Origin: a virus
Lineage: Duplodnaviria; Heunggongvirae; Uroviricota; Caudoviricetes
Virus record (IMG/VR): IMGVR_UViG_2667527839_000005
Length of the DNA: 5,331 nt
Reading direction: 5' to 3' (one strand)
Shown here in pieces: positions 1 through 5,331 of the stretch. Each line of letters begins with the position of its first letter. Positions within the stretch are counted from its first letter, which is position 1. Below the pieces are notes generated by a model, which had not been told where the DNA came from, did not search any database, and worked only from the letters and a program-made list of their open reading frames with translations. The position numbers and the translations under genes were made by a program.

Positions 1-55
1 TGGAGCACCTCAAAAACACCATCATACACTAAATCAGTAAGTTGGCAGCATCACC
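1..55 (-). mobile_element. IS1 insertion sequence, terminal 55 bp only (the window begins inside the element; insA would start just beyond the left edge, reading leftward)
   Basis: Positions 1..55 (tggagcacctcaaaaacaccatcatacactaaatcagtaagttggcagcatcacc) match, from memory, the reverse complement of the IS1 left end: the terminal inverted repeat GGTGATGCTGCCAACTTACTGAT followed by the sequence preceding the insA start. The match ends abruptly at 55/56, where a dehydrogenase reading frame continues. Confidence 0.8.
33..55. repeat. IS1 23-bp terminal inverted repeat (end of element abutting the target gene)
   Basis: atcagtaagttggcagcatcacc at 33..55 is the reverse complement of the IS1 terminal repeat GGTGATGCTGCCAACTTACTGAT. 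The partner repeat and the 8-9 bp target duplication lie outside the window. Confidence 0.75.
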
Positions 56-588
56 CCGTTCTGGTTTATGGTGCCGGTCCAATCGGCCTGACGATCGTTC
101 AGGTATTAAAAGGCGTCTATAACGTTAAAAATGTGATTGTTGCCGATCGCATTGATGAACGACTGGAAAAAGCGAAAGAGAGCGGGGCTGACTGGGCGAT
201 TAATAACAGCCAGACACCGCTTGGCGAGATTTTCACTGAAAAAGGCATCAAGCCGACATTAATTATTGATGCGGCTTGTCATCCTTCTATCCTGAAAGAG
301 GCCGTAACGCTGGCTTCTCCAGCGGCACGTATTGTATTGATGGGTTTCTCCAGTGAACCGTCTGAAGTGATTCAGCAAGGAATTACCGGAAAAGAACTCT
401 CTATTTTCTCTTCACGCTTAAATGCAAATAAATTCCCGGTCGTTATCGACTGGTTAAGTAAAGGGTTAATTAAACCAGAAAAATTAATTACCCATACGTT
501 TGATTTCCAGCATGTTGCTGATGCCATTAGTTTATTTGAACAGGATCAAAAACATTGCTGCAAAGTCTTACTCACTTTTTCTGAATAA
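56..588 (+). pseudogene. rspB: 3' portion of a Zn-dependent medium-chain dehydrogenase/reductase gene (RspB-like), 5'-truncated by the IS1 insertion
   Basis: The frame of ORF 133..588 stays open upstream to the IS1 boundary and translates as VLVYGAGPIGLTIVQVLKGVYNVKNVIVADRIDERLEKAKESGADWA..., i.e. the GxGxxG Rossmann NAD(P)-binding motif and C-terminal half of an MDR dehydrogenase. The N-terminal catalytic zinc domain (~160 aa) is absent and replaced by IS1. The symbol is inferred from recalled K-12 synteny (rspB next to the Qin integrase end), not from alignment. Confidence 0.6.
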
Positions 589-645: not shown

Positions 646-774
646 ATGACAATAGAAAAACACGAAAGAAGCACTAAGGATTTGGTGAAAGCAGCAGTAT
701 CGGGATGGCTGGGCACTGCGCTTGAATTTATGGATTTCAAGAGTCATACGTGTCAACTATTTGATAAATATTAA
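646..774 (+). pseudogene. ydfJ: 5' stub of an MHS-family (metabolite:H+ symporter) transporter gene, truncated by prophage integration
   Basis: ATG at 646 opens a 42-codon ORF. Its first 31 residues, MTIEKHERSTKDLVKAAVSGWLGTALEFMDF, resemble the conserved N-terminus of MHS transporters (compare ProP ...AASLGNAMEWFDF). After codon 31 (about 738) the sequence becomes hydrophilic (KSHTCQLFDKY-stop), with no first transmembrane helix. The name comes from recalled K-12 context (ydfJ is split by Qin). Confidence 0.45.
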
Positions 775-775: not shown

Positions 776-2056
776 TTAATTTTTCATTGCTTCGTTATGG
801 GGCATGGTTGGGGCAAACTCGCTTAACTGTGTATTTAACAAAGCTACCTGTGCATTATTGTTTTCAGACATCCATTTTCCGTATACCTGAAATACCATTT
901 GCGCATCTGCATGGCCCATCTGGTTTGCTATAAATGCCGGATTAGCACCAGCTGTCAGCGACCAGCAGGCATAAGTATGTCTCGACTGATATGATTTTCG
1001 ATGGCGGAGTCCGGCACGTTTTATCGCTGCGTCCCACATCTGCCTTATTGAGTCAACGGTAAAATGGTCACCATAATTTTTTACTCTCGCTGACACTTCA
1101 GGTTGAAAAACAAAGGTGCATTTATGTTTTTCTGTTCTGCCATACTCTCTGAGGTGAACATCAATGATATGCTCTTTGCTCAGTCTCGTTAATGTCATCT
1201 GACTCCGGAGAGCGTCGATTGCTGGCTTAATAAGATGAATGACCCGATTGGTTCCCGCCTGTGTTTTTGGTACCGTGAAACGGTCTTTTGCTAAATTTCT
1301 CCTGATCATCATTGTTCCATTTTTCAGATCTATGTCCTCCCATCCAAGTGCACACAGCTCACCAGGGCGAACGCCAGTATAAACAGAAACACACCATAAA
1401 TTTTTGGCTTGCTGATTTCTGCACGCATCGATAAGACGGATGAATTCCTCCCGCGAAAGAGGATCCGGAATGGTTCTTGATTCCTTTAATGGCGAGATCC
1501 CCTTAAACGGGTTATCTGCCAGGTAACCGTTATCAACACCAAACTGGAACACGGCGTTAAGATTTGTCATGTAATTATTTACAGTTACAGCCGATCTCCC
1601 TGGTTGTGTAACAATATAGTTACTTTTGGGGATCTGGTATCCAGTCAGTAGCTCTTTACGAACCTCCAGTAATTTTTCTTTATTAATCGATGAGGCAAGA
1701 TTTTTTTCACCGATTATGCTCAGGATATTTTTGATGACGGCACGGTATGTGTTGAGTGATGTTTTTGCGACTTCAGTTTCTTTCAGTGCCAGAAATTTTT
1801 CAGCCAGTTCTTTTATGGTTAAATCTTGTCGAGTCTCACCAAATTTTTCCAGATTGCGTGAGGAGGGAAACTGTTTTGCATAGTCGAAAACACCAGTTTT
1901 TATTGCGTAACAAACAGAGGCGCGTAGCTCACCTGCAACGCGCCTGTTTTTTGCTGTGTCAGGAACCCCCAGGTTTTCCCTGACTCTTACGCCTTTATAA
2001 ACAAACCAGATACGTAATTTCCCTCCATGGTTTTCCACGCCTGTCGGATATTTCAT
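776..2056 (-). CDS. int: Lambdoid tyrosine integrase (lambda Int family with N-terminal arm-binding domain), apparently intact
   Basis: Long minus-strand ORF. The N-terminus MKYPTGVENHGGKLRIWF is typical of Rac/Qin-type integrases. Catalytic signature is present: box I arginine in YTGVRPGELCALGWEDID, RHTYA box II, and GHADAQMVFQVYGKW with the catalytic tyrosine. Start chosen at the second ATG (2056), which has a GAGAGAAG purine-rich stretch upstream; the first in-frame ATG at 2071 lacks a ribosome-binding site. Placement is convergent with the chromosomal gene and next to the att junction. Confidence 0.9.
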   Translation of the reverse strand: MKYPTGVENHGGKLRIWFVYKGVRVRENLGVPDTAKNRRVAGELRASVCYAIKTGVFDYAKQFPSSRNLEKFGETRQDLTIKELAEKFLALKETEVAKTSLNTYRAVIKNILSIIGEKNLASSINKEKLLEVRKELLTGYQIPKSNYIVTQPGRSAVTVNNYMTNLNAVFQFGVDNGYLADNPFKGISPLKESRTIPDPLSREEFIRLIDACRNQQAKNLWCVSVYTGVRPGELCALGWEDIDLKNGTMMIRRNLAKDRFTVPKTQAGTNRVIHLIKPAIDALRSQMTLTRLSKEHIIDVHLREYGRTEKHKCTFVFQPEVSARVKNYGDHFTVDSIRQMWDAAIKRAGLRHRKSYQSRHTYACWSLTAGANPAFIANQMGHADAQMVFQVYGKWMSENNNAQVALLNTQLSEFAPTMPHNEAMKN

Positions 2057-2090: not shown

Positions 2091-2342
2091 TCAAGTAAGA
2101 TGACGTCTTGGTCTTGCTGATGCCTGGCGCTCAATCCAGCGATCAATTTCTTCCAGGTTGTAAAAGCATGGACTGTTATCCCATGGCATACCGTCATGAG
2201 CGACATGCTTATATTCCCTTCCTTCCATAAACGATTTTTCCCGGGCCTTTTTTAACGTACCTTTTTTTATTCCTTTCAGCGCAATTAACTGCTCTTCGGA
2301 TACCCATTTGCCGGGAGAGACAATCATGATTACTTCGCTCAT
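2091..2342 (-). CDS. xis: Excisionase-like protein (Xis; putative-excisionase/DUF1233-type as found in Rac/Gifsy-like prophages)
   Basis: 83-aa ORF immediately upstream of int on the same strand (classic xis-int arrangement). The sequence GKWVSEEQLIALKGIKKGTLKKAREKSFMEGREYKHV...FYNLEEIDRWIE fits my memory of the small basic excisionase-like family pattern (KWV...GTL...EG..YK...FYNLEEIDRWIE). An alternative start is the ATG at 2327. Confidence 0.7.
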   Translation of the reverse strand: MSEVIMIVSPGKWVSEEQLIALKGIKKGTLKKAREKSFMEGREYKHVAHDGMPWDNSPCFYNLEEIDRWIERQASARPRRHLT

Positions 2343-2414: not shown

Positions 2415-4886
2415 TTAAGAATCAGCCTGACTCGGGATCAGTTTTTGCCAGATAACTGAAACGTATTTTGCCTGGTAACGGGCGTCATCAAGTGCATTAT
2501 GGCGCTCACCTTCGAATGGAATAGCCGTTCTGGCATCGAAGTCTATGGCTTTCCCCAGCTCAACGATTGTGCGTACATCGCGATCGTTGTAGTAACGCCA
2601 CGGGCAGGGGATCCCCTGCCGTTCGTATGAACGGCGCAAAATCGTGTTGTCGAAGTTGGCTCCATTTCCCCAGACCTGAACAAAAAATTCACCGGAGTTT
2701 TCGTCGATAAATTCCCGCAATTGTAACAGTGCATCATCTAACGGGATTTCATCGGTCATAATGGCAGATTGCGCTTCGCGTGATTGCTTAAGCCACCATT
2801 TAATGGTGTCCCGATCAATGACTCCGCCAGCAGTTTCCAGATCGATAGTCTTACTAAATTCCGGTCCCATATCTCCGGTTTGCGGATCGAAAAATATTGC
2901 ACCTATTGAGATGATCGGGGCATCAGGATTTTTTCCCATGGTTTCAAGGTCGATCATTAGATGGTCACACGTCCTGCTGGTGGATGTGATTTCTTGATGA
3001 CTGTTCACCTTAATTGAGTGATCTGCCGTCTCGCCAGTTTCATTATCGCTATCGTGATGCTGATTGCCGCCAGTGTTCTCCTTGTGTGGATGTTCAGCGC
3101 CTTCCATTTCCTCCGGATCATCTTCCTGAACTTCAACCTGATACTCTTCATCGAATGTTTCCTGGTATGTTGCGTCGCCCATTACCGCGCCACAATCAGG
3201 GCAGTTGCCGCCGCCGGTCTGACCGCAGGCGGTGCAGACTTTTTCCACTTCCTGTTGCGCCACTGATTCAGGCTGTTTCGTTTCTGGCTCGTTTTGTAAC
3301 GCATTTGGGCTGTTTTGTTCCGCTTTTTGGTAGTTCCGTTCCGATTCATGCTGGTTCTGGTTCACAGAATCGCGGGTCTGGATCCCCTTAACCCATTTCG
3401 GATCATTCGGGTCACTAATCCCTTCAACAAATTCACCACGTGATGCAGCAAGCAACTTATCGGCGTCAGGCTGGATGATATTGGCTGCCTGCATAATTTT
3501 GTTTACTTCGTCAGCGGTAACTTTTATCGGCTCTGGTTGTTCTGAATCTTCAGCGGTATCTACATTTTGCGGTAAGCCCGTGTATGTGCCATTTTTTCGG
3601 GCAAAATATTCTTCTTTTGTGATTTCAGTGGCGCCAGCAGCCAGTGCCTTATCCAGACCAGAAAGTTTGTTTGCGCGACCGTATTTTTCTCCGTCCTTAT
3701 CTGCGAAGAGGAAATAGAACGGCCCCTCACGCTCTACAGATGGTTCAGCTTCCGGCGCGGTTTCATTTTTTGGGATATCAGATACCTCAGTTTCCACTGC
3801 ATCAGTTTGTGTTTCTGATGACTGGAGAACATCAACAGTGCCCAGGTCTGTTTCTTCATTCTCAAACACGCCCTTTGTCGTCAGGTATTCGCAGATATAT
3901 TTGTTCAGTGCTACGGGATCTTTGTGAATGTCGATCGGACGCTCACGGACAAGGCCAAAAATAGTTTGGCGGTCGTAGCGAAGGGCATCAGGCTGTTTGC
4001 GCATTGATGCCGAGATACGCTTCCAGTCTTCGCGGTCGTTGTCGATAACTTCATTTTTTGCCCGGCGATGGATGCTGCCGTCAATGTTTCCGGCATCCAC
4101 ATCACCAGGCCAGAGAGCGTAGGCCAGTTCGTCATCCAGTGTTTTCCATGTCTGCTTGTATTCGCGATGAATGGCAGCAATGACCGGGCTGATTTTTCCT
4201 GTTGAATTTTCAGTGTACTGTTGATTGGCTCTGGCGCGGGCGAGATCAACAACAGACGTGTATTTTCCGGTTTCCTTGCGTTCACCTTCGCGACGTTTTT
4301 TCCAGATGCGCATCTCTGCCTGAATTTCGGGCCATTTAGCACCAGGAATACATTTATGCTTAACCCACCCAATGGCGTGCAACTTAAGCTCCGGATACAT
4401 GGCGTTAACTTCTGGCATTTTCATCAACGCTTCAACGATATGTCCGTCGAATGTTGCCATGTCTTCCTGCAACAATTCCTGTGCGCTAATAACCATATCA
4501 ACGGTGATGTTTTCACATGTGTCGAACTTAACCATGACAGCGTTCTGTACTTCAGGGGCCAGCTTGTCAAAAGTGACGTTCATCGGATCGGATTCAGTCT
4601 CAACCGGGACAAAAGAAGCAGACTCCTCATCCCAGCGGTTTTCCTGCATATATTCAGCATCCCATGAATCGAGGGCAGGGCGGGGTATGCCAGGTTTATC
4701 CTCGCAGACAATAAATTTATAAGCGCAGTCCTGAGCAGCCGGATAATGTTCCAGGAATTGCCAGTGAAATTTTGCTCGAGCACGGCGTTCGTCGCCAGCT
4801 TCAATGGCTGTGGCTACAGCCACAGCGCCTTCTTCCCTTGTTGCCAGTTCGTCAGGAATAGCGGCGCAAATAAAGACTTTACTCAT
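2415..4886 (-). CDS. Large prophage early-operon protein (~823 aa) with C-terminal DnaQ-like DEDDh 3'-5' exonuclease domain, a central Cys4 zinc-ribbon motif and acidic low-complexity linkers; occupies the position of the exo/recE gene of lambdoid phages
   Basis: Continuous 2.5-kb minus-strand ORF. The C-terminal ~180 residues carry the three DEDDh motifs: Exo I LMIDLETMG (D codon 2949..2951, E codon 2943..2945), Exo II GNGANFDNTIL (2637..2669) and Exo III HNALDDARY (2484..2501). A CTAC-x7-CPDC motif lies at 3192..3236. Start chosen at the ATG at 4886 (MSKVFICAAI...), which has GAGG 10 nt upstream; the ORF track's 4922 start is a TTG. By position this should be the intact counterpart of the K-12 Qin ydfE fragment; that is an inference. 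Confidence 0.85.
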   Translation of the reverse strand: MSKVFICAAIPDELATREEGAVAVATAIEAGDERRARAKFHWQFLEHYPAAQDCAYKFIVCEDKPGIPRPALDSWDAEYMQENRWDEESASFVPVETESDPMNVTFDKLAPEVQNAVMVKFDTCENITVDMVISAQELLQEDMATFDGHIVEALMKMPEVNAMYPELKLHAIGWVKHKCIPGAKWPEIQAEMRIWKKRREGERKETGKYTSVVDLARARANQQYTENSTGKISPVIAAIHREYKQTWKTLDDELAYALWPGDVDAGNIDGSIHRRAKNEVIDNDREDWKRISASMRKQPDALRYDRQTIFGLVRERPIDIHKDPVALNKYICEYLTTKGVFENEETDLGTVDVLQSSETQTDAVETEVSDIPKNETAPEAEPSVEREGPFYFLFADKDGEKYGRANKLSGLDKALAAGATEITKEEYFARKNGTYTGLPQNVDTAEDSEQPEPIKVTADEVNKIMQAANIIQPDADKLLAASRGEFVEGISDPNDPKWVKGIQTRDSVNQNQHESERNYQKAEQNSPNALQNEPETKQPESVAQQEVEKVCTACGQTGGGNCPDCGAVMGDATYQETFDEEYQVEVQEDDPEEMEGAEHPHKENTGGNQHHDSDNETGETADHSIKVNSHQEITSTSRTCDHLMIDLETMGKNPDAPIISIGAIFFDPQTGDMGPEFSKTIDLETAGGVIDRDTIKWWLKQSREAQSAIMTDEIPLDDALLQLREFIDENSGEFFVQVWGNGANFDNTILRRSYERQGIPCPWRYYNDRDVRTIVELGKAIDFDARTAIPFEGERHNALDDARYQAKYVSVIWQKLIPSQADS

Positions 4887-4978
4887 TTGTTTTAACCTCA
4901 TGACAGATTTAAGGATGAACAAATCCCTGCCATTGCTGGCATATAAGAATGAAACCGGATATTTATTACGGAACTGTT

Positions 4979-5170
4979 TTAAAGACCTGCCGGGATTTCG
5001 ATATTATCCTGGTGAATAACTTTATCGACCGGGTAACAGTTACCGGGAATTTTCTGTTCGGTTGCTGCAGTCATACACTCCTGCATTGTCCTGTGAACAC
5101 TGACTGCAATATCAACTGGCTCTCCGGAAACAAGAAAAACTGTCAGAACAAGCACAAATGCTGAATTCAT
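4979..5170 (-). CDS. ydfD: Small membrane protein, 63 aa, YdfD-like (Qin prophage lysis protein)
   Basis: ATG at 5170 has AAGGA 8 nt upstream and gives MNSAFVLVLTVFLVSGEPVD..., with an N-terminal hydrophobic segment (residues 4-16). The 63-aa length and the position immediately downstream of dicB, with the start overlapping the upstream stop (ATGA), match my recollection of K-12 ydfD. The 81-aa version in the ORF track (start 5224) is an upstream extension in the same frame, with no ribosome-binding site, that overlaps the dicB 3' end. Confidence 0.65.
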   Translation of the reverse strand: MNSAFVLVLTVFLVSGEPVDIAVSVHRTMQECMTAATEQKIPGNCYPVDKVIHQDNIEIPAGL

Positions 5171-5331
5171 TGTGCACATCCTTTTGGCATCAGACGTAAA
5201 CGAGCCAGCATTGAAACAATGCATATTTTATTTAATAGCTCCCGTTCTTGTTTTCTCTTGTTAATGGCATCTTCGTAAGCGTCGTCTGAGTACCGTCTGG
5301 TCCCGAATCCAGGATCCTGTAACTTAAGCAC
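5167..5331 (-). CDS. dicB: 3' part of a dicB-like gene (prophage cell-division inhibitor); 5' end lies beyond the window
   Basis: The minus-strand frame is open from the window edge (5331) to the TGA at 5167..5169 and translates as ...VLKLQDPGFGTRRYSDDAYEDAINKRKQERELLNKICIVSMLARLRLMPKGCAQ-stop. It is missing from the ORF track only because no start codon falls inside the window. Its stop overlaps the ydfD start, consistent with the dicB-ydfD arrangement I recall in Qin. Identification is by context, not alignment. Confidence 0.45.
   Translation of the reverse strand: MLKLQDPGFGTRRYSDDAYEDAINKRKQERELLNKICIVSMLARLRLMPKGCAQ

Follow-up and report, generated by a model that had tools for sequence, protein, structure and literature searches.

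An IS66-family insertion and a deletion leave a dicB stub and a probably silent ydfD in a Qin-type prophage of Escherichia coli strain 81

RESULTS

We analyzed a stretch of 5,331 nucleotides (nt) from IMG/VR virus record IMGVR_UViG_2667527839_000005, which we call the window. On its minus strand, close to the high-numbered end, lie the prophage gene ydfD and, immediately before it, the last codons of dicB. The window matches the record of E. coli strain 81 (NZ_CP088131.1) exactly over all 5,331 bases, and the region very probably represents the distal genes of an early-left (dicBF) operon, in a lambdoid cryptic prophage of the Qin type that sits beside rspB. At this locus, insertion of an IS66-family element, followed by a deletion, appears to have reduced dicB to a dead stub and to have left ydfD as an orphan that is probably silent; we put the probability of this reading as a whole at about 0.9. 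An earlier, sequence-only reading of the same DNA had described a working host-manipulation module, and that description fails here: dicB codons 1 to 27, the regulators, the promoter region, and dicF are all gone from the locus.

The activities of the two proteins are known from published work. DicB works through MinC and blocks ManYZ-dependent phages (PMC6832061). YdfD, studied as the identical K-12 protein, lyses growing cells and binds IspG, and coexpression of DicB or of SulA prevents the lysis (PMC8835842, PMC11430063). The sequence-only reading had named the MinC dependence, the phage interference, and the lysis, all of which are published, but it treated DicB as a second toxin when DicB counteracts lysis by YdfD; the pair described in the literature is a toxin and its brake, not two joint toxins. 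The stop/start overlap of the pair, its regulation, and both activities are already published, and the RefSeq annotation of the strain 81 locus is already correct. The value of the present analysis is thus mainly for annotation: the 63-amino-acid (aa) start of ydfD is the right call, and readers working at the edge of a window can take a pseudogene truncated by an insertion sequence (IS) for a gene cut by the window.

An IS66-family element replaces the first 27 codons of dicB

In the RefSeq annotation of strain 81 the gene order is IS66 tnpC (truncated), tnpB, tnpA, dicB ("missing N-terminus"), ydfD, exonuclease, xis, and int. The dicB entry is a pseudogene of 108 nt that carries the note "incomplete; missing N-terminus." This 3′ remnant (5167..5274, minus strand) consists of codons 28 to 62 (EDAINKRK...KGCAQ) and the stop codon. 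It is 100% identical to K-12 from GAAGATGCC (codon 28) on, and from that codon the identity continues as a run of 1,155 nt through ydfD into the exonuclease gene; upstream of codon 28 there is no alignment. The C-terminal end of the frame, ...DAINKRKQERELLNKICIVSMLARLRLMPKGCAQ followed by the stop codon, matches positions 27 to 62 of the Pfam DicB profile (PF05358) with an E value of 1.9e−19 and 69.5 bits versus a cutoff of 27. The NCBIfam DicB profile (NF049927) is matched at positions 28 to 62 only, with 67.5 bits, which is under its cutoff of 100. A full-length match (∼62 aa) above the curated cutoff is lacking, the native N terminus (residues 2 to 13) is absent, and the remnant does not lie downstream of dicF under the DicA-repressed promoter dicBp. 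The sequence-only reading was correct in assigning the partial open reading frame (ORF) to DicB, as the match of the C-terminal codons shows, but the frame is partial because the IS66-family element truncates it at 5274, not because the window ends.

Homology to dicB ends at 5274, and the remaining 57 bp of the window (5275..5331) are the terminus of the IS66-family element, an inverted repeat that begins with GTAAGCG on the plus strand. On that strand the IS end reads GTAAGCGTCGTC... / GTAAGCGTCGTCTGAGTACC..., and the element continues past the window into tnpA, tnpB, and the truncated tnpC. The sequence at 5275..5331 recurs in ∼2,500 E. coli genomes, where it lies in unrelated places on chromosomes and plasmids. 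The complete element is 2,437 bp long and carries tnpA, tnpB, and tnpC in that order; four complete copies have matching inverted repeats (GTAAGCGT..., from GTAAGCG) and are flanked by 8-bp target duplications (GAAGAAAG, GAAGAGTC, GCATAGGC, and GAAGAAAT). Because the four complete copies show both the inverted repeats and the duplications, the IS boundary can be fixed at 5275. The three genes, the terminal repeats from GTAA, and the 8-bp duplication are those of the IS66 family, with the duplications read in the complete copies; in the strain 81 copy the far IS end is deleted, so it has no target duplication of its own to compare. We use the RefSeq label, "IS66 family," for the element. The strain 81 copy shows 100% identity to a complete copy over 1,859 bp, after which it is broken off within tnpC, beside a ydaT fragment.

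The junction between the IS66-family element and dicB was found in 1 of 5,426 complete E. coli genomes, and the ordinary dicB-ydfD region was found in 4,001. As to a second, intact dicB in another prophage of strain 81, the query matched four positions in the strain 81 record, some or all of which may be IS66 ends.

Two observations concern the element itself. Insertion sites start with GAAGA in four of five independent cases (GAAGATGC, GAAGAAAG, GAAGAGTC, and GAAGAAAT; the fifth is GCATAGGC), which may reflect a target-site preference of this IS66-family element. In another genome (L018, 3201..3848) RefSeq opens a truncated helix-hairpin-helix gene at the same IS-internal GTG that lies at the end of our window. 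Because an outward open frame from the IS-end GTG is annotated there, IS insertions can create hybrid ORFs with the disrupted target gene.

The operon upstream of dicB codon 28 is missing

The layout of the intact operon, its promoters, and its repression by DicA have been described (PMC10448788, PMC11430063). The order in intact copies is dicBp, ydfA, ydfB, ydfC, dicF, dicB, ydfD, exonuclease, xis, and int. The K-12 stretch that comprises dicC, dicA, ydfABC, dicF, and the 5′ half of dicB has no match in the 9 kb upstream in strain 81. DicF RNA (Rfam RF00039) was detected in K-12 and is absent from strain 81. From comparison with intact loci, both dicB-side promoters (dicBp and the internal promoter upstream of dicB) would have been lost with the deleted stretch.

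These observations are best explained by two events. The IS66-family element would first have inserted into dicB directly after codon 27 and before codon 28. Subsequently, a deletion with one endpoint in tnpC would have taken the far IS end and everything from dicB codon 27 to the ydaT fragment, that is, dicA, dicC, ydfABC, dicF, and, presumably, the dicB-side promoters. The outcome would be what is found today, a 35-codon dicB stub joined in frame to IS sequence and followed by an unchanged ydfD.

The dicB stub is unlikely to inhibit division

The joining of the stub to the IS end produces a hybrid ORF of 54 aa (5167..5331, minus strand), in which 19 IS-derived codons precede the 35 dicB codons; residues 1 to 27 of DicB are thus replaced by 19 IS-derived residues. 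Its start is a GTG at 5329..5331, the last three bases of the window, inside the IS end, and an in-frame TGA lies 27 nt upstream of this GTG, beyond the window.

Lethality and strong MinC binding of DicB need the native N terminus, residues 2 to 13 (PMC4967827). In the work of Yang et al., DicB shortened at its N terminus by 2 to 26 residues (ΔN2 to ΔN26) no longer blocked colony formation and bound MinC more weakly, and N-terminal fusions masked activity (PMC4967827). Because published N-terminal truncations lose lethality, and 27 residues are gone here, we regard the stub as inactive as a division inhibitor. By "inactive" we mean that lethality is lost; a total loss of function is not implied. 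Judged against the published truncations, it is very unlikely that a remnant without 27 of its own residues and with 19 foreign ones acts as a division inhibitor, and we infer that the locus yields no active DicB.

ydfD is intact and its start overlaps the dicB stop

The ydfD gene (4979..5170, minus strand; ATG at 5170..5168, stop at 4981..4979) encodes an intact 63-aa lysis protein of family DUF1482. The translation begins with MNSAFVLVLTVFLVSGEPVD and ends with IPAGL; the full protein is MNSAFVLVLTVFLVSGEPVDIAVSVHRTMQECMTAATEQKIPGNCYPVDKVIHQDNIEIPAGL. As the sequence-only reading had proposed, the product is YdfD: alignment identified it as the RefSeq "lysis protein YdfD" WP_001083297.1, the accession that strain 81 shares with a K-12 derivative. 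Membership in the family is clear, with 91.1 bits versus a cutoff of 25 for PF07358 (residues 4 to 61) and an E value of 6.8e−36 for PHROG 1092 (residues 1 to 63 of 63). A Shine-Dalgarno (SD)-like AAGGA (5183..5179, minus strand) lies 8 nt upstream of the ydfD ATG, within the dicB frame. Variants of this SD sequence (AAAAGGA, AACAGGA, and AAAAGGAG or GGAG) are found at the same spacing in all homologues that have the overlap. The start at 5170, rather than at an in-frame ATG farther upstream at 5224, which the earlier reading had also favored, is well supported by this SD sequence, by the positions at which the family profiles begin, and by conservation among homologues.

The ATGA overlap is where the sequence-only reading had placed it (5167..5170; TCAT on the plus strand): the dicB-frame TGA occupies 5169..5167 and the ydfD ATG 5170..5168, both on the minus strand. 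Of 15 homologous loci, 14 have the overlap, in the form ATGA or GTGA, and the fifteenth (Salmonella phage SW-37) has a 1-nt overlap, TGATG. Coding sequences that overlap by 4 nt are also annotated in strain 81, in the K-12 derivative, and in other loci of this set. Both the overlap and the SD sequence persist down to 38% protein identity. By its conservation across these loci, the overlap is a real, conserved arrangement.

Conservation of the overlap does not define a partnership with DicB. No same-strand overlap is more common in the operons of bacteria and phages than the 4-nt ATGA type. The gene that precedes the DUF1482 gene has no similarity to DicB in a Klebsiella phage or in Salmonella phage SW-37, and the overlap is still there; therefore, it is generic packing and not a signature of a DicB/YdfD partnership. 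Because DUF1482 genes overlap unrelated genes too, a 4-nt overlap should not count as proof of a functional or stoichiometric partnership.

The locus does have the form of a coupled pair, namely a stop/start overlap with an SD sequence 5 to 10 nt upstream and within the upstream ORF. In intact copies the SD sequence lies inside the end of dicB, so ribosomes finishing dicB could start ydfD. Judged from its sequence, a 4-nt overlap with an internal SD permits translational coupling and sets no ratio between the products, so the coupled, stoichiometric expression claimed earlier was an overreading.

One metagenomic contig bears on the overlap in another way. An ENA contig of 1,915 bp (P0085) encodes a 108-aa fusion in which DicB residues 1 to 60 are joined directly to YdfD residues 16 to 63; the fusion seems to result from a deletion that spans the overlap and preserves the frame.

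Alternative readings of the locus

One alternative is that the real gene is the 81-aa ORF that opens at 5224 (4979..5224, minus strand; ATG at 5224..5222), with no stop/start coupling to dicB. This ORF is the longest ATG-initiated one, its ATG is kept in close E. coli relatives, and versions of 81 to 85 aa occur in several automated gene calls, from ENA and others (P0004, P0007, and P0063). However, the sequence upstream of the 5224 ATG, GCTATTAAATAAAAT, contains neither a purine-rich motif nor an SD sequence, whereas AAGGA precedes 5170 by 8 nt. The conservation of the 5224 ATG among close relatives is explained by its position, because it is embedded in the conserved Ile-Cys codons of DicB. 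In the homologues from PPompW, SW-37, and the Klebsiella phage, the 5224-type extension closes within 8 to 10 codons or has no start there. Both the Pfam and the PHROG profiles open at the 5170 Met, and RefSeq and the experimental papers use 63 aa. We therefore judge 5224 not to be the start and give a real 81-aa gene very little chance; the 81-aa form is a gene-caller artifact that occurs in automated gene sets. There is one more ATG in this frame, at 5179..5177, but it lacks conservation and has no spacer, because the final base of the SD sequence AAGGA is also its A. The sequence-only reading was fair in warning that the ORF list would lead to an 81-aa annotation, since that ORF is listed; it was mistaken in adding that dicB would be missed entirely, since the dicB frame is listed as the 54-aa hybrid ORF. 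Slimmer still is the chance that dicB and ydfD form an intact, translationally coupled module in which dicB is partial only because the window ends. The C-terminal 35 residues of DicB and the ATGA overlap are indeed present, and ∼4,000 other E. coli genomes have the ordinary dicB-ydfD arrangement. Yet what lies beyond 5274 is an IS66 end and not dicB, RefSeq calls the gene a pseudogene, and the NCBIfam DicB score is under the cutoff; moreover, dicB codons 1 to 27, dicF, and the dicA/dicC region, to which published work assigns the promoters, are absent over 9 kb upstream.

We also weighed whether ydfD is still expressed, from a transcript that leaves or passes through the IS66 end, with translation of the hybrid ORF and reinitiation at the ydfD ATG. 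The IS66 insertion would then have turned a buffered pair into an unbuffered lysis gene. The hybrid ORF, which is the sole frame able to bring ribosomes to the ydfD start in strain 81, is open from the IS-end GTG to the overlapping TGA, and the SD sequence and start of ydfD are unaltered. In the minimum-free-energy fold of the ydfD leader, local hairpins cover the SD sequence and AUG in part; such pairing would favor dependence on upstream translation, but the fold is not significant (z = −1.7). The truncated gene of locus L018 gives a precedent for a start at the same GTG. Against this, a consensus scan of 500 bp of upstream sequence, aimed at the IS66 end and the dicB stub, found no sigma-70-like promoter on the coding strand, transcription of the IS66 tnpA is directed away from ydfD, and the hybrid-ORF GTG has no obvious SD sequence. 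An expressed, unbuffered lysis gene should also be counterselected, yet ydfD is 100% identical to that of K-12, which fits silence and a recent event. Continued expression is thus unlikely, although less so than either of the readings in the preceding paragraph. Any transcription of ydfD would then yield YdfD with no DicB to prevent lysis as it normally does, and strain 81 would be a source of YdfD without DicB.

We prefer a dead dicB stub followed by an orphan ydfD without a known promoter, which, from the sequence around it, is probably silent. Some points weigh against this view. Truncated forms of DicB retain residual MinC binding and cause mild filamentation, according to Yang et al. (PMC4967827). 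The hybrid ORF leaves the dicB frame open to its TGA, so physical coupling to ydfD could persist, and a consensus scan could overlook a weak promoter that reads out of the IS end, as well as transcription arriving from further upstream. Our search of the literature found no experimental test of dicB-ydfD translational coupling.

A doubtful transmembrane segment in YdfD

The sequence-only reading had given YdfD an N-terminal transmembrane segment. The N terminus does contain a hydrophobic stretch, but no more than 14 consecutive residues of it (S3 to G16) are uncharged. The original paper on lysis by ydfD, from Masuda et al. in 2016, reportedly described a hydrophobic N-terminal domain of 22 residues that toxicity does not require. 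The mean Kyte-Doolittle hydropathy over 19 residues is 2.0 here and 0.8 to 1.4 in distant homologues, some of which have Asn or Thr in the segment. AlphaFold2, run from a shallow alignment of 13 sequences with 70 to 97% identity, gave a model with a mean predicted local distance difference test score (pLDDT) of 86 and a predicted template modeling score (pTM) of 0.64; two of the five models were confident. The predicted structure is a compact alpha/beta fold with no N-terminal helix, in which a strand at residues 4 to 12 would pair with one at residues 18 to 26, followed by a helix at residues 29 to 38 and three short strands. Lu et al. obtained full-length YdfD as a tagged fusion, which they purified out of the soluble fraction in a detergent-free buffer. 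A search of the literature on YdfD transmembrane topology found nothing relevant. Given the short uncharged run, the predicted strand, and the soluble purification, a membrane-spanning N terminus of YdfD is doubtful.

A Foldseek search of the PDB with the YdfD model gave no match at an E value of ≤0.001. Cys32 and Cys45 are invariant in all homologues examined, including the distant phage homologues at 38 to 48% identity. It is conceivable that members of the DUF1482 family are not membrane proteins but small, soluble proteins of alpha/beta type that share a conserved pair of Cys residues; they would then be made only via coupling to whichever small ORF comes before them. Among the best 120 of 226 matches in the search for YdfD homologues, almost all were from Escherichia or Shigella. 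A contig assigned to a metagenome-assembled genome of Veillonella parvula (L006; JAGZPX010000007.1) carries an E. coli-type dicB-ydfD, with 86% YdfD identity and a full DicB upstream; it is most likely a binning contaminant.

Comparison with known systems

The closest known system is the dicB-ydfD pair of the K-12 prophage Qin (b1575-b1576), which lies at the same chromosomal site next to rspB. Its ydfD is identical to that of strain 81 in protein and in whole-gene nucleotide sequence, and there is 100% identity in dicB codons 28 to 62, in the ATGA overlap, in the SD sequence, and over the initial 768 nt of the exonuclease gene. The two loci differ on both sides of this shared segment. In place of dicB codons 1 to 27, dicF, ydfABC, dicA, dicC, and the promoters, strain 81 has the truncated IS66-family element. 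On the other side, strain 81 retains intact exonuclease, xis, and int genes, whereas in K-12 they are broken by IS2; ydfE of K-12 is the IS2-truncated N-terminal remnant of the exonuclease.

The inducible lambdoid phages mEp460, Tritos, vB_EcoS-813R8, and PPompW share the order dicB, ydfD-like gene, exonuclease, with a 4-nt overlap. Unlike strain 81, they have a full-length dicB (in PPompW the Pfam match covers 1 to 62 of 62), and in PPompW the overlap is GTGA. In Klebsiella phage ST974-OXA48phi18.2 and Salmonella phage SW-37, a DUF1482 protein of 63 to 65 aa is likewise encoded upstream of an exonuclease or recombination gene, and its start codon shares bases with the stop codon of the small gene before it, as ATGA or TGATG; in contrast to the strain 81 locus, that preceding gene has no similarity to DicB.

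YdfD resembles phiX174 E, Qbeta A2, and levivirus LysM in being a small phage lysis protein that inhibits a host envelope-precursor enzyme, in this case IspG (PMC8835842). Judged by the Foldseek search of the PDB, there is no sequence or fold relationship between YdfD and these proteins, and the YdfD gene, unlike theirs, is in the early operon of a temperate phage, Qin, that has its own holin-endolysin cassette.

Other features of the window

Both ends of the window are IS termini, an IS1 end at 1..55 and the IS66-family end at 5275..5331. The IS1 terminal inverted repeat (1..55, reverse complement of GGTGATGCTGCCAACTTACTG...) truncates rspB, of which the 3′ part remains (56..588, plus strand), the remainder of the gene being cut by IS1.

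Downstream of ydfD in the early-left operon is an intact exonuclease gene of 823 aa (2415..4886, minus strand; RefSeq coding sequence). A Pfam Rv2179c-like exonuclease domain covers residues 654 to 825 of the 835-aa ORF, and PHROG 2082 is matched over its full length. The protein has a RecE-like middle, a long acidic low-complexity stretch, a CxxC...CxxC motif (CTACGQTGGGNCPDCG), and the C-terminal Rv2179c-like 3′-5′ exonuclease domain. It is followed by an excisionase gene (2091..2342, minus strand; Pfam DUF1233 putative excisionase, E value of 1.6e−31; RefSeq annotation) and by a tyrosine integrase gene at the prophage end (776..2056, minus strand; RefSeq coding sequence), which matches Pfam Arm-DNA-bind_2 and Phage_integrase.

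Next to the integrase gene is a 42-aa ORF (646..774, plus strand; MTIEKHERSTKDLVKAAVSGWLGTALEFMDF...) that resembles the N terminus of a major facilitator superfamily (MFS) metabolite transporter. We take it to be a fragment of ydfJ split by Qin integration, in which case the prophage attachment site would sit here. A 71-aa antisense ORF (4949..5164, plus strand) spans nearly all of ydfD on the opposite strand; it has no evidence for a gene and is probably spurious. Outside the window, in the decayed prophage region of strain 81 upstream of IS66, we found a sok antitoxin RNA of a hok/sok-type locus (L001, 3601..3772; Rfam RF01794, 99.8 bits).

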